A DNA stretch of 64,000 nt, from contig JAAWKU010000005.1 in the NCBI GenBank assembly GCA_022797535.1, positions 3,175 through 67,174 of the forward strand, written 5' to 3'. The notes under the pieces were generated by a model, which was not told the DNA's origin, made no database searches, and worked only from the letters and a program-made list of their open reading frames with translations. The position numbers were made by a program, and so were the translations under genes. Source of the DNA: Lachnospiraceae bacterium (GTDB lineage Bacteria; Bacillota; Clostridia; Lachnospirales; Lachnospiraceae). Position 1 is the first letter of the stretch, and each line of letters opens with the position of its first letter. Shown here piece after piece: positions 23,354-61,515 of this stretch.

Positions 23354-23388
23354 TTAAACAGATGCAATACGGCATGGAGGATACAAAA

Positions 23389-25947
23389 GTGAACGCAAAG
23401 ACTGCGCACATAACCAAGACAGGAGACAAAATATTTGAACAGGACTTAAAAGAGCATTTACTTCATACAGCCATACTGTGCAGAGGATATATGGAGAAAG
23501 CGGGCTGCCCAGGCATGGGGTATCTGGCGGGCATCCTCCACGACGCAGGCAAGGCCGGGCCGGCCTTTCAGGGCAGGATGGAGGCCATACGGGAAGGCAG
23601 GCCGGATCCGGGGCAGAAAGGGGGACATGCCTCTGCCGGTGCGGTGCTGCTTGGCAGATTGAGCCAAAAGCTGGATCATTGCTCCAAGAGGACTGACAAC
23701 TGCTCCAAGAGCTTCACTTTGCAGGCCATATGTGAGGCCATTTTTTCCCATCATGCGGCACTGCCGGACAATATATCACCTCAGCTGGAGGATGGATATA
23801 AGGCCAGGCTTCAATGTGAAGAAGATGAATTGGCGGAGATAGAGGCATATTTTTTGGGGGAAATCATCTCCAGAGAGTGCTTTGAGAAACTTCTGGAGCA
23901 GGCATGCGGGGAGGCAGAAGCATTTGTAAAAAGGATGAGACGCTGCGCAAGAGCCCGGAAAGAGATGGATTTTTTCCTGGGCATGGCGGAGAAGATGCTG
24001 TTGTCAGCTCTGATTGACGCCGACTGGCTGGACAGCGCCACCTGCGGCGGGCAGGGGCAGACGGATTTTGAGGATCTGGTGAAAGAAGAATTTAGCCCCA
24101 GGTATGGAGAAAACTCTGTAAATATGTCCAGGGAACAGTTGTTTACGCATTTTCTGGGCAATCTGGAGAATGGTTTGAGGGAAATGAACCGGTCCGCCAA
24201 ACCCATCAATACATGGAGAAATTATATATCTGACCAATGTAAGGAGGCGGGAGCCAGAAAGGGAGGGATCTATACCCTGTCCTGTCCCACCGGGGCCGGC
24301 AAAACCCTGGCGGTGACCCGATTCGCCCTGACTCATTGCGTCCAGCAGGGTAAAGAAAGGATATTCTATATTATTCCCTACCTGTCGGTCATTGACCAGA
24401 CGGCCAAAAGCATAAAGAAGGCGCTGGGAGCCAAGAATCCGGGAGACACCGACGAACTGGTGGAAAGCGGTATACTGGAACTTCATTCCCAGGCAGAGTA
24501 CAAAAAAGGAGGAAAAACGCCGGGTAACTCATTGGCCGGGGAGGAGGAACCTGCCACCGAAGGGGACTTCTGGGCACAGAGGATGGCGGAGCCCATAGTG
24601 CTGACCACCATGGTGCGTTTTCTGAATACTTTTTTTGCCCGGGGTACCAGAAATCTACGCCCGGCCCATCAGTTCCAAAACGCAGTGCTTATCTTTGATG
24701 AGGTGCAGACCCTCCCGGTAAAGCAGATCGCCCTGTTTAACAGTCTGATCAATTATCTGACACAGCTTTGCGGGTGCACATGCGTCCTGTGTACCGCCAC
24801 CCAGCCTCTGCTGGGGGAGACTGTAAAACCGGTATATCCCGCCAAAATGGCTGAACCCGCGGCGCTGGCGGAACTCCCCCCGGAAGCGGGAGAAGTTTTC
24901 AGGCGGGCGCGGATAGAACCCCGGCTGAAAACGGCGGGTTATACGCAAAAGGAACTGGCGGATTTTGTCTGGGAAACGGCGGAAGAGAGCGGAAACGCTC
25001 TGGTGATCCTGAATACCAGGGACTGTGCGCTGGCTCTTTACAGTGAAGTGGTAAAGCGGGCGGGAGAGGCATATAAGGTGTATTATCTGTCCACAAAGCT
25101 ATACGCGGCGCACAGGAAAAGCATCATTGAAGAAATCCGCAGGGCGCTGAAGGCTGGAGAGAAAATCATGGTGATCAGCACATCCCTGATTGAGGCTGGC
25201 ATTGATTTTGATTTTTCCTGCGTGATCCGATCTCTGGCGGGAATGGACTCCATCGTGCAGGCGGCGGGGAGATGCAACAGAGAAGGACTGCGGGGCGTAG
25301 AGCCCACTTATATTGTCAATCCCTGCCGGGAACTGGAATCACTGGTTCGACTGAGGGATATCCGCGTGGGGGCCGCCTCTTCTGAGCGGCTGTTGGCGGA
25401 GCTTGCCAGGGACCGGACGCGGTTTGGAGGCGAGCTGCTGTCGGAGGAAGCGATACATATTTACTTTTCCTATTATTTCTGGGAAAGAGCGGAAGAGATG
25501 GTTTACCCCATCTCCAGAGAAAGCGGCGGTTCTCTGTATAATTTACTATCAGATAATATGGGTCTGGTGAAGTCGGGCCATCTACACAATGCCTATGAAG
25601 TGAAATTGCTGAATCAGGCATTTAAAACGGCGGCAGAACATTTCAGCGTTATAGAGGAGAAAGGGAATTCCGTTTTTGTACCCAGGGGCCGGGGAAAGGA
25701 GATCTGGGCGGAGATCCAGAGAAATGCGAAACCTGGAAAAACAGAGTACAAGTATATAAAGAGCCTTTTAAAGGAAGCACAGCAATATGTGGTAAATCTG
25801 CACAATTATGAAATAGAAAAGCTGGGAAAGGGGGCCATACAATGGGAGGATAAAATGGGGATGTATGTCCTGAATGAGATGTACTATGACGAAAAGGCCG
25901 GAATTACCGGGGAAATCAGCAGTAATATGCCGATACAAATGTTTTGA
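23389..25947 (+). CDS. cas3: CRISPR-associated HD nuclease/helicase Cas3, type I-C
   Basis: HLL..LHDAGK and HH HD motifs, CPTGAGKT, IFDEVQ, CTAT, QAAGRCNREG; GTG 23389 follows GGAGG (ORF track start 23362). Confidence 0.96.
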   Translation: MNAKTAHITKTGDKIFEQDLKEHLLHTAILCRGYMEKAGCPGMGYLAGILHDAGKAGPAFQGRMEAIREGRPDPGQKGGHASAGAVLLGRLSQKLDHCSKRTDNCSKSFTLQAICEAIFSHHAALPDNISPQLEDGYKARLQCEEDELAEIEAYFLGEIISRECFEKLLEQACGEAEAFVKRMRRCARARKEMDFFLGMAEKMLLSALIDADWLDSATCGGQGQTDFEDLVKEEFSPRYGENSVNMSREQLFTHFLGNLENGLREMNRSAKPINTWRNYISDQCKEAGARKGGIYTLSCPTGAGKTLAVTRFALTHCVQQGKERIFYIIPYLSVIDQTAKSIKKALGAKNPGDTDELVESGILELHSQAEYKKGGKTPGNSLAGEEEPATEGDFWAQRMAEPIVLTTMVRFLNTFFARGTRNLRPAHQFQNAVLIFDEVQTLPVKQIALFNSLINYLTQLCGCTCVLCTATQPLLGETVKPVYPAKMAEPAALAELPPEAGEVFRRARIEPRLKTAGYTQKELADFVWETAEESGNALVILNTRDCALALYSEVVKRAGEAYKVYYLSTKLYAAHRKSIIEEIRRALKAGEKIMVISTSLIEAGIDFDFSCVIRSLAGMDSIVQAAGRCNREGLRGVEPTYIVNPCRELESLVRLRDIRVGAASSERLLAELARDRTRFGGELLSEEAIHIYFSYYFWERAEEMVYPISRESGGSLYNLLSDNMGLVKSGHLHNAYEVKLLNQAFKTAAEHFSVIEEKGNSVFVPRGRGKEIWAEIQRNAKPGKTEYKYIKSLLKEAQQYVVNLHNYEIEKLGKGAIQWEDKMGMYVLNEMYYDEKAGITGEISSNMPIQMF

Positions 25948-26101
25948 GAAACGGTTACAGCCTGTTTCCGAATAACGTAATCATCCGGAAAATAATCTGC
26001 CGCATCGTACTTTGGGCAGTTCTCCATCGGATAAGGCTTTTGCGGAAAAGGGAACAGGATGGAATCAATACAGTAAGTTGTATTGGACAGAAAGGAGGAG
26101 C

Positions 26102-26836
26102 ATGGAAAAAGAGAACAGTATTACATTTGCGCTGACAGGGCGTCGGGCGCTTTTTACGGATCCTGTCAGCAAGATGGGCGGAGAAAAATTCACCTACCAG
26201 GTTCCCACCTACCAGGCGCTGAAAGGGGTGCTGGAAAGCATCTACTGGAAACCTACGCTGGTTTGGATCGTGGACAGGCTGCGGGTTATGAATCCCATTC
26301 GCTCGGAATCCCAGGCTGTGAGGCCCATCGACTATGGCGGAGGCAATACCCTGTCGATCTACACCTATCTGGCGGATGTGGAATACCGGGTGCAGGCACA
26401 TTTTGTATGGAATGAGAACCGGCCCGACCTGGCCGGGGACAGGGATGAAAACAAACATTATTTTATTGCCAGGAGGGCGCTGGAAAAGGGAGGCCGGAGA
26501 GACATTTTCCTGGGAACCAGGGAGTGCCAGGGCTATGTGGAACCCTGCGATTTTGACGGCGGCCAGGGAGCCTATGACATGTATGACGAGTTTCCGCTGG
26601 GGCTGATGTTTCATGGGTTTACCTACCCTGACGAGGCGGTGCGGCAGGAGGAGAAGAATAAGCTGACGGCCAGGTTCTTTCACCCGGTGATGAAGAGAGG
26701 GGTTATTACGTTTCCTGCGCCGGAGGAGTGTGGCATTCGCCGGATTCTGACAGACCGAAAACCCAGGGAGTTCAGCCTGGAAAAAGGGAATGTGACATTT
26801 GCGGGGGGAGGTGCGCTGGATGAGTTGGCTGAATGA
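26102..26836 (+). CDS. cas5c: Type I-C Cas5c (Cas5d), crRNA-processing subunit
   Basis: [37 protein letters not shown]; ATG after AGGAGGAG. Confidence 0.95.
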
Positions 26837-28673
26837 TTTGTACCTGACCTACGAGGTCTGCAAGAGCGATCCCCAGCTTTTGCCCATCGCGCATCTGACC
26901 CAGAATGCGCAGCTGGAGGTGGTTCTGGATGAAGAGGGGAATTTTTCCCGGGCCAGCCGGGTGGACAAGGAGGATGCGGTCACGGTGGTCCCTGTCACGG
27001 AGGATTCTGGCAGCAGGAGCGGCAAAGCCATTTTCCCTCATCCCCTGTGTGACAAGCTGGAATATATCGCCGGGGATTATGCGGATTTCGTGCCGGGCAG
27101 CATGGGGGATAAATTCGAAGCCTATATTGCACAGTTGGGTAAATGGGCCCAGTCCGATTACAGTCTCCCCCAGATTAGGAGCGTATACAGGTATCTGCAG
27201 GAACGCAGACTCATGGAGGATTTGCGGGAGGCCGGTTTTTTCACCTTCGAGGATGGCAGGATCCAGGCGGAAAAGCAGCAGGGGGTAGCGCTGGAGAACT
27301 GGTTTGTGCGCTTTGCGGTAGAGATTCCAGGACAGCCTGAGCGCAGACTGTACCGTGACCGACAGGTATTTGACAGCTACATAGAGTATTATCTGTCCAT
27401 CCAGAACAGCAGGGAGTTGTGCTATGTCTCCGGCGAGACCGTGCCCTGCTCTGAGAAGCATCCGGCCAAAATACGGAATACGGCCGACAAGGCCAAGTTG
27501 ATTTCCGCTAATGACGCGTCGGGTGTGCTGACCTTCAAGGGGCGGTTCCGTGACAGCAGCCAGGTGGCTTCCGTGAGTTATGAGATATCCCAGAAGGCTC
27601 ACAGCGCCCTTCGCTGGCTGATTGCCAGACAGTCAAGCCTGAAAATCGGGGAACAGGTTTTTGTGACATGGTCCATGGAAAATCTTGACATGCCCTCCCC
27701 TTTCCTTGAGTTGGATTGGGGGGAGGAAACAGAGGGCATTGCAGATGGCCCGTATCCAGACTGGGAGGAGGAGCAGGAGGTCTTTATAGATGACGCCTAT
27801 TCGGACTGGGTGCATAGGGCCATCTGGGGGTCGGGCCCGGCTCCGGAGGACAGGGATACCGTCATGGTAATGGGGGTGGAAGCAGCCACCACAGGCCGAC
27901 TGTCCATTCCCTTTTATCAGAAATATGGGGCAAAGCAATTTATCCAAAATGTGGCCAGGTGGAAAACGGAGACCTGCTGGCTGAGCTGGTCGAACAAGAC
28001 GCAGGCATATGGGCCCTGGTCTCCCTCTTTGATCGAGATCGTAAAGCTGGTGGCAGGGGAGAAAAACGCCAAGCTGAATAAAAGTGTGCGGGAACGGCTG
28101 ATCCCCTGCATCGTGGAGGGCAGGAAACTTCCCTATGATATAGTGTTGTCCGCCCTGGGGCAGGCCGTAAATCCTTCACATTTTAAGGAGTATTGGGAGT
28201 GGAACAGGGTCGTGACAATTACATGTGCCCTGCTGAGAAAGTGGCAGATAGAAAGAGGAGACGGAAGGGAGGAACACAGTATGAGTTTGAATGTGGAGAG
28301 CAAGGACAGGAGTTACATTTTCGGTCAGCTGCTGGCCACGGCGGAGATGTTGGAGAGAAGCGCTCTGGTCATGGGGAGCAGCAGCAATAAGGAGGGAATG
28401 CGGAACACGGCGGCGGAAAAATATTTTGTCCGGTTCCAGAGATATCCGGTGGAGACCTGGGCCACCATCAGGAATCAGCTGCAGCCGTATGTGATGAAGC
28501 TGGGGAATGCAGGAAAGTTTTTTTATATTCATAAGCTGGCCGAATTGACTGACAGACTTGATATGAGCCAGAGGGACAGGCTGGAACCTACCTTTTTGCA
28601 GGGTTATAGCAGCCAGATTATAGAGTATCGCAATTCCTCCAGGAAGCAGGAGAGTGGGAAGGAAAAGGATTAG
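26820..28673 (+). CDS. cas8c: Type I-C Cas8c (Csd1), large subunit
   Basis: MSWL..LY.TYE start, [49 protein letters not shown]. Confidence 0.95.
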
Positions 28674-28758: not shown

Positions 28759-29625
28759 ATGAGCGAATTTACAAACAAAATTGATTTTGCAGTGGTATTC
28801 AGTGTGAAAAATGCAAATCCCAACGGTGACCCCCTGAACGGGAACAGACCCAGGGAGACCTATGACGGATTCGGGGAGGTGTCGGATGTATGCCTGAAGA
28901 GGAAGATCCGAAACCGAATGATGGATCTGGGATATCCGGTGTTCGTGCAGTCCGATGATCGGAACGTGGACGGCATCAGAAGCCTGAGCGACAGGGCGGG
29001 GGCAGCGCCGGAACTGAAGGAGGCGGGAAAGGACAAGGAGAAGTATGCAGCGGCCGCCTGCCAAAAATGGATGGATGTGCGGACTTTTGGCCAGGTATTT
29101 GCTTTTAAGAGCAAGGACAAGGGAGCCGAGGGGGATGGCGTGTCGGTGGGGGTGAGGGGCCCTGTGTCCATCCAGACGGCAGTAAGTGTAGCCCCCATTG
29201 ATATTTCCTCCATGCAGATCACCAAGAGCGTCAACAGTGAGACCAGTGAGAAGAAATCCCCGGATACCATGGGGATGAAGCACAGGGTTGACTTTGGCAT
29301 GTATGTCACTTATGGCAGCATCAATCATCAGTTGGCGGAAAAGACAGGATTTTCGGACGAGGATGCGGAGGTAATCCGGGAGATTCTGGTGACATTGTTT
29401 GAAAATGACGCTTCTTCCGCCAGACCTGATGGCAGCATGGAAGTATGCAAGGTGATCTGGTGGAAGCACAACTGCTTCCTGGGGCAGTATTCCTCTGCCA
29501 AGGTGCATAGGTGCCTGCAAGTGCGCAGAAAGCCGGGAGTAGAAATCGCCAAGAGTCGGGAGGATTTTGAGATAACGGTGGCGGAACTGCCTGATCTGAA
29601 GGTTGAGATCTATGACGGAATTTGA
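28759..29625 (+). CDS. cas7c: Type I-C Cas7c (Csd2), backbone subunit
   Basis: NANPNGDP..NRPR, VSDVCLKRKIRN, DVRTFGQVF, GPVSI, ENDASSARP. Confidence 0.96.
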   Translation: MSEFTNKIDFAVVFSVKNANPNGDPLNGNRPRETYDGFGEVSDVCLKRKIRNRMMDLGYPVFVQSDDRNVDGIRSLSDRAGAAPELKEAGKDKEKYAAAACQKWMDVRTFGQVFAFKSKDKGAEGDGVSVGVRGPVSIQTAVSVAPIDISSMQITKSVNSETSEKKSPDTMGMKHRVDFGMYVTYGSINHQLAEKTGFSDEDAEVIREILVTLFENDASSARPDGSMEVCKVIWWKHNCFLGQYSSAKVHRCLQVRRKPGVEIAKSREDFEITVAELPDLKVEIYDGI

Positions 29626-30280
29626 ATATAAAGAAGAGGACTTTCTACAGCTTGCGGGCTTGCAGCATTTTACCTTTTGCAGAAGGCAATGGGCATTGAT
29701 CCACATTGAGCAGCAGTGGGAGGAGAATGTTCTCACCGTAAAGGGCAATCTTTTTCATGAGAAGGTGCATGACGGGTATTCCAGGGAGAGGAGAAAGAAT
29801 GTGATAATCTCCAGAGGAATGCCCGTGCATTCCAGATCACTGGGAATCAGCGGGGAGTGCGATGTGGTGGAATTTGTCCGGGCAGAAGAAGGAATCTCTC
29901 TGCCCGGACAGGAGGGAAAGTACATCCTATATCCGGTTGAGTACAAACGGGGCAGGGCAAAAATCACGGATGAGGACAGAATGCAGTTGACAGCCCAGGT
30001 AATATGCCTGGAGGAAATGTTTTTGACAGAGATTTCCCGGGGCTATCTGTTTTACGGGGAAACCCGCAGACGGGAATGTGTGGAAATCACTGGGGAATTG
30101 CGTGCGGAATGCAGAAGGCTGCTTCAGGAGATGCACCAGTTTTATGCAAGGGGATACACTCCAAAAGTGAAAAAGGCTAAAAAATGCGAGGCATGTTCTC
30201 TGCGGGAACTCTGCCTGCCCAAGCTGGAGAACAGAAGGAATGTGGCGCAATATATCTCCCAATATATGGAGTCTGATTGA
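29612..30280 (+). CDS. cas4: Cas4 exonuclease
   Basis: LQHFTFCRRQW, DVVE..PVEYKRG RecB motif, QLTAQ, C-terminal CEACSL..LCLP Fe-S ligands. Confidence 0.95.
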   Translation: MTEFEYKEEDFLQLAGLQHFTFCRRQWALIHIEQQWEENVLTVKGNLFHEKVHDGYSRERRKNVIISRGMPVHSRSLGISGECDVVEFVRAEEGISLPGQEGKYILYPVEYKRGRAKITDEDRMQLTAQVICLEEMFLTEISRGYLFYGETRRRECVEITGELRAECRRLLQEMHQFYARGYTPKVKKAKKCEACSLRELCLPKLENRRNVAQYISQYMESD

Positions 30281-30296
30281 GTGCGAAATCGCGGGA

Positions 30297-30580
30297 AAGA
30301 ATGCGGATTTCGGATTGAATGCGAAGCCGCATAAAGAAAGCTGATTCAGGTTGAAGTCGTAGCTGAGTGAAGAAAGCGGATTCAGGTTGAAATTGTAGCT
30401 GCGATAAGAAAGCTGATTCAGGTTGAAATCGTAGCTGCGATAAGAAAGCGGATCCAGGCTGAAATCGTAGCTGCGAGAAGAAAGCGGATTCAGGTTGAAA
30501 TCGTAGCTGCGATAAGAAAGCGGATCCAAGCTGAAATCGTAGCTACGTAGAAGAATACTGATTCAGGGTTGAACCCGAAA
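30297..30580. repeat. 36-bp tandem repeat: six good copies (30334-30549) plus degenerate flanking copies
   Basis: Consensus AAGAAAGC(G/T)GAT(T/C)CAGG(T/C)TGAAATCGTAGCTGCGAT; units start at 30334, 30370, 30406, 30442, 30478, 30514. Confidence 0.95.
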
Positions 30581-30639
30581 CTGTAGGAAAAGATATTGAT
30601 TCAGATAAGTCTGCTGAAGTTAATAACTTGAAGATTGGT

Positions 30640-30875
30640 ACACGGGCACATCCATAATCAAACTTACAGTACCGCCTATATCGCTATCTGTCTTGTTGGT
30701 GTCAGAAGGCGATGCCACCCCATCGCCTTCTTCCTCCACCTTGAAGAGTGACAATATATCCGGCACTATTAGTTCAAAGATGAACATGCGAGCACATTAG
30801 TGGGCTTGGCGACGTTTTAAAGACAGCAACATGGCCGGCTCCCAACATGCATTCAGAGGAAGGGATATAAACAAG
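30640..30875 (+). mobile_element. Structured non-coding segment resembling an IS110-family left end (bridge-RNA-like), no transposase
   Basis: Seen: 11-bp perfect hairpin 30704-30731, -10-like CATAAT at 30653, no ORF. Recalled, unverified: motifs ATAATCAAACTTACAGTACCGCCT, GGTGTCAGAA, TGGCGACGTT..GACAGC upstream of clostridial IS110 transposases. Confidence 0.4.
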
Positions 30876-30892
30876 ATTGTGAGGATACATAC

Positions 30893-31924
30893 ATGAGGAA
30901 ACTGCTGAATACGCTGTATATTACATCCAGTGAATATTATCTGTCACTGGACGGGGAAAACGTGATTATTTCCCAGGGTAAGAAAGAGATGGGGAGGTTG
31001 CCGCTTCACAATCTGGAGGCTATTGTGACATGTGGATACGCAGGGGCAAGTCCGGCTTTAATGGAGAAGTGTGCGGCCGGCAATATCTCCATGACATTTC
31101 TGTCTCCCACAGGCAGATTCCGGGCTAAAGTAACGGGAAAGGCATATGGCAATATCCTGTTGCGAAGGACACAGTATCGAATGGCAGATGATAAGAAACA
31201 AACGTTGGAGATTGCCCGGAATTTCATGATCGGAAAAATATATAACCAGCGAAGCGTTATAAACCGAGCTATGCGGGACTATGGAGAACGGTTGGATACG
31301 GAAAAGCTGAGCCTGGTCTCTACTCAGCTCAAAGGGACCCTTCAAAGCGTGAGAGAGGCGGATACCATGGAAACGCTGCGGGGAAACGAGGGAGAGGCGG
31401 CTTCCCGCTATTTTTCCCAGTTTAATCAGTTGATCTTACAGCAGAGAGAGGAGTTCTCTTTTGATACGAGAAACAGGAGACCGCCATTGGATAAGGTGAA
31501 TGCTTTACTCTCCTTCACATATGCCCTTTTGACCAGTATGTGCGTAGCAGCCCTGGAGACGGTGGGCCTGGATCCCTATGCGGGCTTTATGCATACGGAC
31601 AGGCCGGGACGCTGTTCACTGGCGTTGGATTTGATGGAGGAACTCAGAGCCCCTTACGCCGATCGGTTTACCCTTTCCTGCATTAACAGGAAAATGGTGG
31701 ATTCAACAGATTTTGAAGAGAAGGAGAATGGGGCTGTTTTTCTAAACGAGTCCGGGAGGAAAAAATATCTGTCCGCATGGCAGAACAAAAAGGCAGAAAA
31801 GTTGACGCATCCCTATTTGCAGGAGAGCATAGAATGGGGGCTTGTTCCTTATGTGCAGGCATTGTTGTTGGCTCGCTTTATAAGGGGAGATCTGGATGGA
31901 TATCCTCCCTTTTTATGGAAATAA
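30893..31924 (+). CDS. cas1: Type I-C Cas1 integrase
   Basis: MRKLLNTLYIT, RGNEGEAASRYF, RNRRPPLD.VNALLSF.Y, GFMHTDRPGR.SLALDLMEE, GDLDGYPPFLWK. Confidence 0.97.
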   Translation: MRKLLNTLYITSSEYYLSLDGENVIISQGKKEMGRLPLHNLEAIVTCGYAGASPALMEKCAAGNISMTFLSPTGRFRAKVTGKAYGNILLRRTQYRMADDKKQTLEIARNFMIGKIYNQRSVINRAMRDYGERLDTEKLSLVSTQLKGTLQSVREADTMETLRGNEGEAASRYFSQFNQLILQQREEFSFDTRNRRPPLDKVNALLSFTYALLTSMCVAALETVGLDPYAGFMHTDRPGRCSLALDLMEELRAPYADRFTLSCINRKMVDSTDFEEKENGAVFLNESGRKKYLSAWQNKKAEKLTHPYLQESIEWGLVPYVQALLLARFIRGDLDGYPPFLWK

Positions 31925-31969
31925 GTTCTATGATACCTGTAATATACAATATGCGGTGGAGGGGATTAT

Positions 31970-32260
31970 ATGTTGATTGTTGTTACTTATGATGTGTCTA
32001 CCGAAACGGCTGCGGGAAGGGCCAGATTGCGAAAAGTTGCCAAACAATGCCAGAACTACGGACAGCGTGTCCAAAACTCGGTATTCGAATGTATTATTGA
32101 TGAGGCCCAGTTTGTCACTTTCAGAAGTAGTTTGCTGAAATTGATTAAAGAAGAGGAGGATAGCCTGCGCTTTTACCGCCTGGGAAACTCATACCACAAT
32201 CGCATAGAGCACTATGGAAGCAAAAATGTGCCGGATCTGGAGGCCCCTATTATTTTTTAA
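31970..32260 (+). CDS. cas2: Cas2
   Basis: MLIVVTYDV, RVQNSVFEC, DSLRFYRLG. Confidence 0.97.
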   Translation: MLIVVTYDVSTETAAGRARLRKVAKQCQNYGQRVQNSVFECIIDEAQFVTFRSSLLKLIKEEEDSLRFYRLGNSYHNRIEHYGSKNVPDLEAPIIF

Positions 32261-32423
32261 ACAGTGCGAATGCCAAGTACACATGCATTTGCAGAGAGTT
32301 TCGCACCTGATACTGTATCTATTTAGAGTCTATATTTTATGACAAGAGTAAAACAAGTGTGAAATATTGTTAACAATATATAACTTGTTAGCAATAGAAG
32401 TGATATTTTTGTTTACTTTTGGA
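32261..32423 (+). promoter_or_regulatory. CRISPR leader
   Basis: AT-rich 163 bp between cas2 and repeat 1; GTGCGAA (32264) / TTCGCAC (32300) inverted pair. Confidence 0.85.
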
Positions 32424-34510
32424 GTCACTCCCCGTGCGGGAGTGTGGATTGAAATTGGCCTGGCCAGTACAGGCGCAAACCAAATATACAGTCACTCCCC
32501 GTGCGGGAGTGTGGATTGAAATTGTCCCCGGAAGCCTATGAGGAAATGCGGGACTGTCACTCCCCGTGCGGGAGTGTGGATTGAAATCTTATCTATCTGC
32601 TGAACCGCATTGAGAGCAAAGGTCACTCCCCGTGCGGGAGTGTGGATTGAAATTCATAAACCGTGGGATTTACGCCTGCGGAATCCATGTCACTCCCCGT
32701 GCGGGAGTGTGGATTGAAATGCTGACGCAGTAAGCGCATCTGACACCTCGGTGCGTCACTCCCCGTGCGGGAGTGTGGATTGAAATTTCTGGCGGCAACG
32801 AACGTGTACCACATATACCAGTGTCACTCCCCGTGCGGGAGTGTGGATTGAAATTGCGGATGGGGTAACGGATTTGGCGGCGGCTATGGGTCACTCCCCG
32901 TGCGGGAGTGTGGATTGAAATTTTTGTATTTTTCAGTTCCGCCCGGATGTTTCCCGTCACTCCCCGTGCGGGAGTGTGGATTGAAATCCTCTGACGAGGA
33001 TGTTAGAAAAATACTGGTTTAGTCACTCCCCGTGCGGGAGTGTGGATTGAAATTTGCTGTCTTACGTCACCGATGAGCAGGGCAATATGTCACTCCCCGT
33101 GCGGGAGTGTGGATTGAAATGTCCTGGCGATGTGATCCAGCGCTTTGGTAATCGTCACTCCCCGTGCGGGAGTGTGGATTGAAATATCAGGAGGCTCCTC
33201 TTCCGGCGGAGGAGACGGATGTCACTCCCCGTGCGGGAGTGTGGATTGAAATTGATGTATCAACCAATGAAAAATATGAAATAGAAGTCACTCCCCGTGC
33301 GGGAGTGTGGATTGAAATTCTTGTGGTCCTGCGGCCGGTATTTTGCCATGCGGTCACTCCCCGTGCGGGAGTGTGGATTGAAATGATTTTTTCAGATAAT
33401 CCATCAAAGAATCCGGCCAGTCACTCCCCGTGCGGGAGTGTGGATTGAAATCCAAAATTTTTAAAAGGTGTGTGGGTCAGCGAGTCACTCCCCGTGCGGG
33501 AGTGTGGATTGAAATATATACCATAACACCTTTTGACATTTTACCAGCGTCACTCCCCGTGCGGGAGTGTGGATTGAAATCTTATCTATCTGCTTAACCG
33601 CATTGAGAACAAAGGTCACTCCCCGTGCGGGAGTGTGGATTGAAATAAATCCAGTCGCCTTGATAGAAAAATCGCGATGCGCAGTCACTCCCCGTGCGGG
33701 AGTGTGGATTGAAATAACCGCCTGTCGTGGGAAGCCTGCCGCCGGATTGTCACTCCCCGTGCGGGAGTGTGGATTGAAATGTCCGATAATTCAGAGCAGG
33801 AGAGCAATCTTCCAGTCACTCCCCGTGCGGGAGTGTGGATTGAAATTCCGATACCTCTGTGCATGCTGCCATGCTCATTGAGTCACTCCCCGTGCGGGAG
33901 TGTGGATTGAAATTGTATTCCGATCCGCACCGTAGAGGACTGGGCTGCGTCACTCCCCGTGCGGGAGTGTGGATTGAAATATTGATGATTACCAGTTTAA
34001 CCGGCTATGGACAGTCACTCCCCGTGCGGGAGTGTGGATTGAAATCGTCTGAAGTAATAGTAAAATGTAAAGTATCGGAGTCACTCCCCGTGCGGGAGTG
34101 TGGATTGAAATAACACACAATCCTAGGCAGATTGAGGAATGAGTGCGTCACTCCCCGTGCGGGAGTGTGGATTGAAATCATTGAGGAACATCCTTTTGCT
34201 CTTAAGGTCAACAGTCACTCCCCGTGCGGGAGTGTGGATTGAAATAATCTGCGCCGCAATCTCTATTAGCTTGCAGACGGTCACTCCCCGTGCGGGAGTG
34301 TGGATTGAAATCTCCTTTGTGGCTTTGTCATCGAGCATATTTTCCGTCACTCCCCGTGCGGGAGTGTGGATTGAAATATATGGGTGGAACGGGGAGGGCG
34401 GTGTCCGCTGGGGTCACTCCCCGTGCGGGAGTGTGGATTGAAATTGTTAAAGATGCATTTGAACTAATGAAACACATGGTCACTCCCCGTGCGGAAGTAC
34501 AGATTGTGCC
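32424..34510 (+). CRISPR. Type I-C CRISPR array: 32 repeats, 31 spacers of 32-37 nt
   Basis: Repeat GTCACTCCCCGTGCGGGAGTGTGGATTGAAAT (32 nt; CACTCCC/GGGAGTG stem); 31 identical copies and a degenerate terminal copy at 34479. Confidence 0.99.
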
Positions 34511-34790
34511 CCAAAGTGCTGCCCTTGAAAACAACAATGGCAAATAGCGTTATCCTCCTAAATAGAAACGGGAACCGTAAAAATTCTCCCCCCCTACCGA
34601 AAGCTCTCACCATATTTCTCATTCATTCATAAAACTATCCAATTTAAAGAATAGCCATCACTATAGCTTTGCCATTCAAGAAAACAAGCAGAGTTTTCCC
34701 TCTTGACCTTATCCCAGGGACATGGTTTATACTTTGCATGAAATGATTCCCTTAAAGGATCCCGGCACAGGTTGTCAAAGCAAAAGGAGC

Positions 34791-35752
34791 GTTAATTTGG
34801 GCGTAATAAAAAAATTGATCCGGCAGCATAAAATTCTGTTTTTTACAGCAGTTTTCCTAACAGTTCTATCGGTTTTACTCAATTTGTGCTGGAATAAATT
34901 CCTGATGGAACTGCTGAACAGGCTGGGAAATTCTGTCTCTTGTTCCTCTCAAGCAGGAATGGGGTTATGGTTTCTGGCAAGAGGGGGATCGCACTGCTGT
35001 ATTCATTTAGTGAATTTGTATCCTTCTGCCTGGCCTCCTGCGTCTGTGAGAACTTTGCGCATGACCTGCGCATGGGATATGTGAAATATTATCTGCAAAA
35101 CGATATCCGAAATTTGGCCGTACTGAAGGCAGGAGAGGAGCAGTCTGCCATGCAAAATGAATTGAAGGATATTTCAGACTATTTCCATGAGAATCTCTTT
35201 TCTTTCATGAAACAGTTTGTTACCTATGGAATCACGGCCTTCTTTCTGTTCCGCCAGAATCCCAGACTGGCTCTGGTTTCTGTCCTTCCCGCCTTTCCGC
35301 TTATGGCTTATTGCTTTTACACGGGCAGGATTATTAAAAACTGCACGGAACAATGTCAAAGGAGTAAAAAACAGATAAACGGTTTGGCAGATGTCCTTTT
35401 GGAGTTGTTTCCTGTGATTCAGGTGTATGACGCTTACAGACTAATCCGCCAGGCCATGGGCAGACAGATTCTGAATTGGCAAAACGCCAATATCAGGAGG
35501 GAAAAGATTTCAGCCAGTCTCATGTCCCTGTCCGGCCTGCTTTCCTTTCTGCCTTTATTGCTGCTGCTTGGGTTTGGAGGAACGATGGTGGTAAAGGAGG
35601 AGATCGGTATGGGTACTTTCTATATCTTTATCAACCTGTCAGGCAATGTCTCGGGATTCCTGCAAAATATGCCCAACATTTATGCTGGTTTCAGACGATT
35701 TGAGGCATCCGTTGAAGGTCTTGGAGAAAAGCTGGTATTAGGTAAGCACTAA
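34791..35752 (+). pseudogene. ABC transporter transmembrane subunit, frameshifted
   Basis: First TM helix is in one frame (ends 35084), the rest of the TMD in another (to 35752); shift lies around 34930-34990. Confidence 0.65.
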
Positions 35753-51770: not shown

Positions 51771-51856
51771 GTTCCCATCAGACGGCATTGCTGTCGGCCA
51801 ACGATGCCGCCGCATCGCCCTCTCCTCCGCCTTGCCTATGGAACCTCTGCCTTGGG

Positions 51857-51928
51857 AGTGAAGTGCACGCAGTCCTGGGTAGTGAGGAGCACGCAGTCCT
51901 GGGTAGTGAAGTGACACGCAGCCCTGGG
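51857..51928. repeat. 24-bp tandem repeat, three copies, intergenic
   Basis: AGTGA(A/G)G(T/A)GCACGCAGTCCTGGG(T) at 51857, 51881 and 51905. Confidence 0.85.
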
Positions 51929-52049
51929 GAGGATGAGAAGGCAGTGCCGGCTAAAGGCAGGGCGATAGGTTCGGGTTGTAGGGCAGGGGCTGAAAATGGT
52001 ATAATGGAACAAAATCCCGGGAGGCAGGAAAACCAGGAGTGGAGAGAAC

Positions 52050-59703: not shown

Positions 59704-61515
59704 ATGAAAAAAAGAGTGATCAACGCATTGCTGGTAGGGATGCTGACAACTTTTATTTTACAGCAGTCGGTTCTGGAGATGCCGTCAATGGCGGCAGCCA
59801 TGGAACCGGGGAGCCTGGTCTGTATGGGAGAGGACGCAGAGTGTATTCCAGGAGAATCTGCCCGGGAAGAAACAGAGCAGGATGGAGAAGCCGTCCAGGG
59901 AGAACAGGGACAGGGCGGAGAATCTGCCCGGGAAGAAACAGAGCAGGATGGAGAAGCCGTCCAGGGAGAACAGGGACAGGGCGGAGAATCTGCCCGGGAA
60001 GAAACAGAACAGGACGGAGAAGCCGTCCAGGGAGAACAGGGACAGGGCGGAGAATCTGCCCGGGAAGAAACAGAACAGGACGGAGAAGCCGTCCAGGGAA
60101 AACCGAAACAGAAAGAAGATGCTTCAGCAGATACGGAGGGGCATGAAGGATTTATTTCCGGCTCGGGCCCGGAGACTGGTGGGGGGACTGACGCAGCCGG
60201 TGCAGCGTCTCAACCGGGCGGAGAGCCGGAGACTGCGTCAGAGGACAATGGCGCCTCAGAGTCTGCAGCGGAGAATACGGAAGACGGGCAGGAAGAGAGC
60301 GAATATGCCAACCTGGCCATTGCCCAGGTAGACAATTATGTGAACCTGCGTCAGGAGCCCAACACGGACAGCGAGATTCTGGGCAAGATATACAATGGAG
60401 CCGTAGCCCAGATCCAGGCTGTAGCCGGGGAGGAGCAGGACTGGTTTCGGGTGATTTCCGGCAGCGTGGAGGGCTATATCAAGTCGGAATATTTTATCTA
60501 TGGAGATGAAGCTGTGGAGGCGGTAGACGACTATGTGACCCGCTATGCCGCCGTGACTGTGGACAGGCTCAATGTGCGCCAGGAACCGGATGCGGATTCC
60601 AAGCGCATAGGCTATGTGGGCAATGGAGAAAAACTGGAACTCTTGGAGCAGCAGGGAGACTGGCTGCTGGTTCAGTATACGGAGGACCAGACCGGCTATG
60701 TGGCGGCGGAGTATGTGACCGTTTCAGAGGAGTTCCTCTATGCGAAATCCATAGAGGAGGAGAGGGCAGAACAGGAGGCCCGACGCATGGCGGCTCAGGA
60801 GCAACTGGCGCAGGATCAAATAGCTCAGGGGCAAATAACGCAGGATCAGATAGCTCAGGGGCAGATAACGCAGGATCAGATAGTTCAGGGGCAAATAACG
60901 CAGGATCAACTGGCTCAGGGGCAGATAACGCAGGATCAGATAGCTCAGGGGCAAATAGCGCAGGATCAACTGGCTCAGGGGCAGATAGCGCAGGATCAAA
61001 TAGCTCAGGGGCAGATGACACAGGATCAGATAGTTCAGGGACAAACAGTTCAGGATCAGTCAACTTTGGTGCAGACTACCCCGGAACAGGCAGTGCCGGA
61101 GAGCCCGGTGGAGACGCCACTGACCCCGCCCGCCGTCGTCTATACTTCCAATGAGGAATTGCGCAGCGCCATTGTGGATTATGCCATGCTGTATCTGGGA
61201 TATCCCTATGTACACGGCGGCAGGAGCCTGGCCGGGGGCACGGACTGTTCCGGCTTCACCTGTTATATCTATGCGGATTTTGGATACTCCATCAGCAGAA
61301 CGCCTTCCGGGCAGTACAGTTCGGCGGGCAGAAGCATTGATTACAGTGAAATCCAGCCCGGGGACATTATATGTTATGGAAAGACCAAATGCACCCATGT
61401 GGGTATGTATATCGGGGACGGCCAGATCATTCACGCCGCTAACTCCCGTAAGGGAGTGGTGATCTATGACGCCGGGTATGACACGATTCTGGACGTCAGG
61501 AATGTGATTGATTAA
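59704..61515 (+). CDS. Secreted SH3-SH3-NlpC/P60 peptidoglycan endopeptidase with acidic and Gln-rich repeat linkers
   Basis: Signal peptide; two SH3b domains (VNLRQEP, LNVRQEP); GYPYVHGG..DCSGF, HVGMY, HAAN. Confidence 0.9.
   Translation: MKKRVINALLVGMLTTFILQQSVLEMPSMAAAMEPGSLVCMGEDAECIPGESAREETEQDGEAVQGEQGQGGESAREETEQDGEAVQGEQGQGGESAREETEQDGEAVQGEQGQGGESAREETEQDGEAVQGKPKQKEDASADTEGHEGFISGSGPETGGGTDAAGAASQPGGEPETASEDNGASESAAENTEDGQEESEYANLAIAQVDNYVNLRQEPNTDSEILGKIYNGAVAQIQAVAGEEQDWFRVISGSVEGYIKSEYFIYGDEAVEAVDDYVTRYAAVTVDRLNVRQEPDADSKRIGYVGNGEKLELLEQQGDWLLVQYTEDQTGYVAAEYVTVSEEFLYAKSIEEERAEQEARRMAAQEQLAQDQIAQGQITQDQIAQGQITQDQIVQGQITQDQLAQGQITQDQIAQGQIAQDQLAQGQIAQDQIAQGQMTQDQIVQGQTVQDQSTLVQTTPEQAVPESPVETPLTPPAVVYTSNEELRSAIVDYAMLYLGYPYVHGGRSLAGGTDCSGFTCYIYADFGYSISRTPSGQYSSAGRSIDYSEIQPGDIICYGKTKCTHVGMYIGDGQIIHAANSRKGVVIYDAGYDTILDVRNVID
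59851..60099 (+). repeat. 66-bp (22-aa) coding tandem repeat, about 3.8 copies
   Basis: GESAREETEQDGEAVQGEQGQG units at 59851, 59917, 59983 and 60049. Confidence 0.95.
60811..61050 (+). repeat. 30-bp (10-aa) coding tandem repeat, eight copies
   Basis: QDQ(I/L)(A/V)QGQ(I/M/T)(T/A/V) units every 30 bp from 60811. Confidence 0.95.

Follow-up and report, generated by a model that had tools for sequence, protein, structure and literature searches.

A species-specific minisatellite, probably passive, between cas4 and cas1 of a type I-C CRISPR-Cas operon

The 36-bp tandem array that lies between cas4 and cas1 in the 64,000-nucleotide stretch of Lachnospiraceae DNA analysed here (the window) is best read as a passive, single-locus, non-coding and species-specific variable-number tandem repeat (VNTR), in other words a minisatellite, and we give this reading a probability of roughly 75%. 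The array has a tandem unit within the 10-100 bp range of such elements that recurs above chance, a copy number that differs between strains, and no conservation in other species. A first-pass annotation of the same DNA had listed neutral slippage beside several functional roles. It is the slippage option that is now favoured, given a unit unique to the species and absent from orthologous loci, polymorphism in whole units, and a host genome with 126 minisatellites.

The surrounding locus is a complete type I-C CRISPR-Cas system on the plus strand of the window, as established by NCBIfam matches and a repeat search. It comprises cas3 (23362-25947), cas5c (26012-26836), cas8c (26799-28673), cas7c (28759-29625), cas4 (29603-30280), a type I-C cas1 (30893-31924) and cas2 (31970-32260), followed by a CRISPR array (32424-34510) of 32 repeats (GTCACTCCCCGTGCGGGAGTGTGGATTGAAAT) that ends in a degenerate terminal repeat. 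Cas4 is intact, with 79% identity to the Cas4 of the closest congener and collinear with its relative up to the last residue; a look-up of this Cas4 returned no record. Between cas4 and cas1 there is a gap of 612 bp, which holds the tandem array, a copy of a miniature inverted-repeat element (MITE) and finally a unique 92-nt stretch (30801-30892, plus strand) with the cas1 ribosome-binding site, GAGGA, placed 8 nt before the ATG. A search of positions 29500-35500 against Rfam gave no match at E <= 1.

The array is made of six core 36-bp units (30345-30560, starting at 30345, 30381, 30417, 30453, 30489 and 30525 when laid in register) with two degenerate units on each side, so that its full extent is 30273-30632. 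The first-pass annotation had described six near-identical units without spacers at 30297-30580; both Tandem Repeats Finder and the unit register bear out the units, and the range proves slightly wider than given. At 30334-30573, Tandem Repeats Finder detects 6.6 copies of a 36-bp period (86% matches, score 336) and, above it, a 72-bp higher-order period of 3.3 copies and 90% matches. The consensus unit has 4 matches at three or fewer mismatches, against 0.00 expected from shuffles. Two types of core unit can be told apart, A-type (TTCAGGTTGAAATCGTAGCTGCGAT... / TTCAGGTTGAAATCG...) and B-type (TCCAGGCTGAAATCG...), and their alternation in the last four core units gives rise to the 72-bp period. 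On the left, the degenerate units (30273-30344, starting at 30273 and 30309) measure about 31 and 37 nt, the second of them containing the word GGATTGAA and a 6-bp stem, ATGCGG/CCGCAT; the right-hand pair (30561-30632) starts at 30561 and 30597. The array begins on the final codons of cas4, whose stop codon falls inside the first degenerate unit.

Its position inside a cas operon naturally raises the question of a relationship with CRISPR itself. The array is not a CRISPR array, since the head-to-tail units abut without unique spacers of similar length between them, and the earlier statement that they lack the hairpin of the CRISPR repeat holds. A more subtle kinship was claimed from the motif TTGAAAT, the last 7 nt of the CRISPR repeat, and from an 8-of-11 match to the 11-nt handle TGGATTGAAAT. 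The match stands for three core units (those at 30381, 30417 and 30489) and for the degenerate unit at 30309; it fails for the B-type core units (GGCTGAAAT / AGCTGAAAT), which score 7 and 6 and lack TTGAAAT, the motif being present in three of the six core units. Among 100,000 random 36-mers from the same genome, 4.0% match the handle as well on the same strand, and a 7-mer shared with the repeat occurs in 5.1% of them on the same strand and in 9.3% when both strands are counted. When the repeat is aligned locally to the array region, the top match is the exact 8-nt word GGATTGAA in the degenerate flank unit (P = 0.19 for a region as long as this); for the flank alone P is 0.04, a post hoc choice of region. 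The resemblance is at chance level.

Two CRISPR-derived roles might nevertheless be imagined for such units, either titration of Cas5c or Cascade through multimeric mimicry of the crRNA 5' handle, as the first-pass annotation had proposed, or service as a degenerate cr-like guide of the CreR/CreA type. Mini-arrays of the latter kind occur in about 7% of I-C loci (PMC10120712, Table 1). Like these cr-like RNA mini-arrays (CreR, CreA and scaRNA-type; Shmakov et al., 2023, PMC10120712; bioRxiv 10.1101/2023.03.10.532045), the array is non-coding, contains repeats, sits within a type I cas operon and resembles the 3' end of the CRISPR repeat over a short span. Unlike them, it has no significant repeat similarity and no repeat-spacer-repeat layout, it is not conserved in related loci, and it has no partially complementary promoter target, so that none of the four hallmarks of cr-like mini-arrays (PMC10120712) was found in it. 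Pseudo-spacers were taken as the 29 nt after TTGAAAT, with a seed match set at 10 or more of 12 positions; in the 64-kb window they gave two seed matches, neither with a TTC PAM nor in the cas locus, where shuffled pseudo-spacers would give 5.2. With half of the core units lacking the motif, no hairpin, no target and a resemblance at chance, a CRISPR-derived element of either kind, the decoy included, is highly improbable.

A second question is whether the units encode a peptide, for which the period of 36 bp, divisible by three, gives an obvious motive. Of the plus-strand frames, the one that continues cas4 stays open for five units (RKRIQVEIVAAI...). It contains no ATG, GTG or TTG, is preceded by TAA and TGA stops before the core and ends in a TAG 345 nt before cas1, while both remaining frames are stopped in each unit; the earlier claim that all three plus-strand frames contain stops or lack a start is thus confirmed. 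The minus strand has two frames that run across the core units without a stop, and one forms a 200-aa ORF (29927-30529) that runs antisense through cas4. Either this ORF or a small plus-strand RKRIQVEIVAAI repeat peptide could in principle be the product. By chance alone, a unit of 12 codons would leave about 3.4 of its six frames open. No equivalent antisense ORF of at least 90 aa exists in either of the two closest relatives (G005 and G009), and the minus-strand ORFs and the three open-frame repeat peptides had no meaningful family match in NCBIfam or Pfam. The sole paralogue signal in the own genome, a tblastn match of the repeat peptide on contig C74, was rejected as a weak hit to a low-complexity, Ser/Gly-rich coding minisatellite and not homology. 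A coding function is therefore hardly credible.

The unit has a narrow distribution. In its own 3.5-Mb genome it finds nothing except itself, so the genome-wide search suggested by the first-pass annotation returned a single locus and no scattered copies, and it is absent from 60 related genomes, of which 36 are congeners. Public collections were scanned with a degenerate 22-nt pattern of the unit. Among 185,579 species genomes (GTDB) there was one single-copy match, in an Acidobacteria MAG; the JGI metagenomes gave one more, also single-copy and inside an NlpC/P60-like coding region; and the viral contigs of IMG/VR gave no match to the pattern. Two single-copy matches are about the number predicted by chance.

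The orthologous cas loci carry the same message. Of the 60 related genomes, 15 yielded a relative of Cas1, and in six of these the cas4-cas1 junction could be read. In G005, whose Cas1 is 85% identical, the gap is 24 bp, and in G009, with a Cas1 of 84% identity, it is at most 81 bp; neither cas locus contains the array. The two genes overlap by 4 bp in three other genomes (G027, G040 and G047) and are separated by 92 bp in the sixth (G017). Because cas4 and cas1 overlap or lie within 92 bp of each other in all six related I-C loci, the 612-bp gap is a lineage-specific expansion and no conserved part of the I-C operon. Absence from orthologous cas loci had been named beforehand as a result that would speak against a function for the array, and it was found in every species examined outside its own.

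Within the species the situation is different, and it is here that the array shows itself to be variable. The exact Cas1 protein is found on at least 22 public contigs, three of which span the gap. On L012, an independent 121-kb SPAdes contig with an identical Cas1, the gap measures 540 bp, and on two Logan contigs (L018 and L034), again with identical Cas1, it measures 468 bp. Relative to the 612 bp of the window, alignment and Tandem Repeats Finder show a clean absence of 72 bp (two units) and of 144 bp (four units) inside the core, with almost identical flanks. The comparison of unit number across strains that had been recommended thus reveals variation in whole 72-bp unit pairs, with copy numbers taken from short-read assemblies, which may collapse repeats. 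Further Logan contigs, from other samples, break at the array: eight have their start at the last A/B' junction, 394 bp ahead of cas1, and six others end 92-104 bp after cas4. Breaks at both edges of the core indicate that the k = 31 assembly graph was broken by at least two repeated units. The array is thus present throughout the species, as it is in every strain seen, its number varying by unit pairs.

Might the repeat number, or even the array itself, be a product of misassembly? The genome is a draft of 206 contigs and tandem repeats are poorly handled by short-read assemblers. Against this, the array recurs with the same flanks in the independent 121-kb SPAdes contig and in Logan contigs from many runs, and we regard an artefact as barely conceivable.

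The strain comparison also provides information on whether the operon still works. The oldest spacer, TGTTAAAGATGCATTTGAACTAATGAAACACATG at the trailer end, is common to the window and L012, as are the degenerate terminal repeat and the leader, and all other spacers seen differ between them, in CRISPR arrays of 32 repeats (window) and at least 48 (L012). The arrays compared are those at 32424-34510 of the window and 5532-8812 of L012. The insertion of tandem array plus MITE, being common to all strains, predates their split, and since the spacers differ, dozens of them were acquired after it. The insertion leaves cas1-cas2 functional, and the I-C system is still active. A working type I-C operon can hold about 600 bp of junk (minisatellite and MITE) between cas4 and cas1 and go on acquiring spacers. 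Within the CRISPR array of the window, the spacers at 32588-32621 and 33581-33614 are near-duplicates, with 98% identity over repeat-spacer-repeat.

One internal feature of the units deserves closer consideration. Each core unit holds a 14-nt near-palindrome, ATCGTAGCTGCGAT, which as DNA is palindromic at 12 of 14 positions and as plus-strand RNA is fully self-complementary with two G-U pairs; the copy at 30428-30441 (plus strand) is an example of those that drive unit-to-unit stems in the predicted RNA fold. The six core units have a predicted folding energy of -78.7 kcal/mol as plus-strand RNA and -44.9 kcal/mol as minus-strand RNA, compared with -49.8 +/- 13.3 kcal/mol for shuffled-unit arrays (P of about 0.02 and 0.78, respectively, the former being one among several tests run). 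This strand asymmetry could reflect a selected structure in the sense RNA. A cause at the level of DNA would fit the prediction equally, as hairpin-forming units would favour slippage.

The functional counterpart of this observation is a copy-number-variable cis-regulatory spacer, the RNA structure or length of which tunes read-through into cas1-cas2, RNase processing, or translation relative to cas3-cas4; strains with 2, 4 or 6 units would then differ in adaptation rate. The difference between strains in whole unit pairs accords with such a role, and the rheostat on copy number that the first-pass annotation had mentioned is compatible with the observed polymorphism. A plus-strand fold stronger than 98% of shuffled-unit arrays, with no such excess on the minus strand, also favours it, as does the loss in this lineage of the usual overlap of cas4 and cas1, with the translational coupling that it implies. 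On the other hand, no orthologous locus examined outside the species has the array, and the nearest relatives already lack the overlap, yet have no array. Neither the gap nor the array gave a promoter- or terminator-like site in a consensus scan. Strains with six and with four units have both acquired many spacers, and the fold statistic comes from a series of several tests, on a palindrome that would suit an origin by slippage at the DNA level just as well. We consider cis-regulation unlikely. More specifically, the array might be a structured sense-RNA insulator, with unit number setting what share of the cas3-cas4 transcript reads on into cas1-cas2 or is cut off from it by processing, which is more doubtful again. 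Were it true, it would amount to a heritable and rapidly mutable dial on the rate of CRISPR adaptation, differing between strains of one gut species; any tuning of cas1-cas2 expression by unit number would represent control of CRISPR adaptation in the style of a contingency locus.

The near-palindrome could also be the site of a dimeric DNA-binding protein, the array then being an operator, a centromere or an iteron-like element. The sopC centromere of plasmid F, to which SopB binds, has 12 units of 43 bp in tandem, every one containing an inverted repeat. The layout of the cas array is similar, with tandem units of about 40 bp that each contain a short near-palindrome, a weak one at 12 of 14 positions. 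It differs from sopC in being chromosomal and in a cas operon, with cas4 and cas1 as neighbours and no partition (par), replication (rep) or regulator genes nearby. Neither the 12-nt nor the 14-nt version of the motif has a further site in the own genome, which makes an operator for a host regulator less likely. Moreover, the 36-bp spacing corresponds to 3.4 helical turns and places successive sites out of phase, and neither the relatives nor the public viral collection scanned contain the array. An array of protein-binding sites is accordingly very unlikely.

Directly beyond the array, at 30636-30800 on the plus strand, lies a diverged MITE copy of about 165 bp, which is bounded by terminal inverted repeats (CTAGTGTAC...GTACACTAG) and has a GC hairpin at its centre. 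The element is short and multi-copy, has terminal inverted repeats and lacks a transposase, as MITEs do. A search with a good 165-bp copy places the family at about 115 loci in the own genome. That 76 of 115 loci sit at contig ends is the signature of an assembly-breaking repeat, and so the MITE is a main cause of the fragmentation of the assembly. In its length, inverted ends, missing transposase and some 115 loci, the copy resembles the MITE insertions known from operon spacers; unlike these, the copy in the cas gap is strongly diverged and has a tandem array outside the element. The possibility that the array is part of the MITE was discarded, as other MITE copies have no adjacent array. 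Arrays near MITEs are not enriched in the own genome either: 6 are no more than 300 bp away from one, where 4.2 would be expected (P = 0.24).

Some further observations concern this family. The MITE hairpin shows a paired change between strains, GAAGGCGATG/CATCGCCTTC in the window versus GTAGGCGATG/CATCGCCTAC in L012. In the congener G009, the same family is found between cas8c and cas7c of the I-C operon (contig L024, 525-705), and about 100 bp beyond that copy there is a tandem repeat of 20 bp x 2.7 (L024, 800-874). The same cas8c-cas7c gap is expanded in G005, where it contains A-rich repeats of 11-15 bp (contig L023, 763-861); in the window it is only 85 bp long. Elsewhere in the window, a further locus of the MITE family has a 24-bp x 3.2 tandem repeat (51853-51945) at a distance of 18 bp.

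How, then, might the minisatellite have arisen? It would have formed by repeated local duplication, through slippage during replication or through unequal recombination, of the stretch directly 3' of the cas4 stop codon, in a cas4-cas1 gap that related I-C operons either lack or have in very short form and that also took up the MITE. Hairpins formed between units by the 14-nt near-palindrome may have favoured slippage. The central units would be kept alike while being gained and lost in 72-bp pairs, and the edge units left to decay. The array is presumably transcribed passively within the cas polycistron, and the separate ribosome-binding site of cas1 may explain why it is tolerated; a function is probably lacking.

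A minisatellite at this location is less extraordinary than it may appear. With Tandem Repeats Finder, 126 arrays with a period of at least 18 bp and at least four copies were counted in the 3.5-Mb genome, most of them with a period divisible by three and inside long open frames, about 15 being non-coding. Since the lineage makes minisatellites readily, one in an already-opened gap of the cas operon is unsurprising.

The closest known kind is the intercistronic VNTR, such as the mycobacterial MIRU loci (Supply et al., 1997, Mol Microbiol 26:991, pmid 9426136, as cited in PMC3914561). MIRUs are minisatellites with copy-number variation (PMC3635867). Like MIRU-VNTRs, the cas array consists of head-to-tail units of tens of base pairs between co-oriented genes of an operon, is non-coding in practice, varies in copy number between strains and has degenerate edge units. 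Unlike them, its unit occupies one locus only, where MIRUs are interspersed at about 40; and whereas the small ORFs of MIRUs overlap the stop and start codons of their neighbours, the cas4-continuous frame of the array is interrupted by stops and has no start. Thus neither a dispersed unit nor a coupling ORF was found here. As it stands, the array is of little wider importance; its gap length of 468 + 72n bp is a handy strain marker for the species in metagenomes.

The commonest minisatellite periods in the genome are 36, 39 and 42, and with 126 minisatellites, mostly coding, the proteome is unusually repeat-rich for a bacterium. The window itself contains two long coding tandem arrays, at 59851-60111 and 60793-61059 (33/66-bp and 30/90-bp periods), inside a 603-aa ORF at 59704-61515. 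Finally, a 73-bp unit that contains two hairpins (GTATGAAAC..GTTTCATAT and ATATCGCAAGC..GCTTGCGATAT) is dispersed in the own genome, at C142:10864-11159, C81:9809-10099, C3:14493-14791 and 20 or more further loci, singly or in four-copy tandem arrays, and with its loop and stem variation it looks REP/BIME-like.
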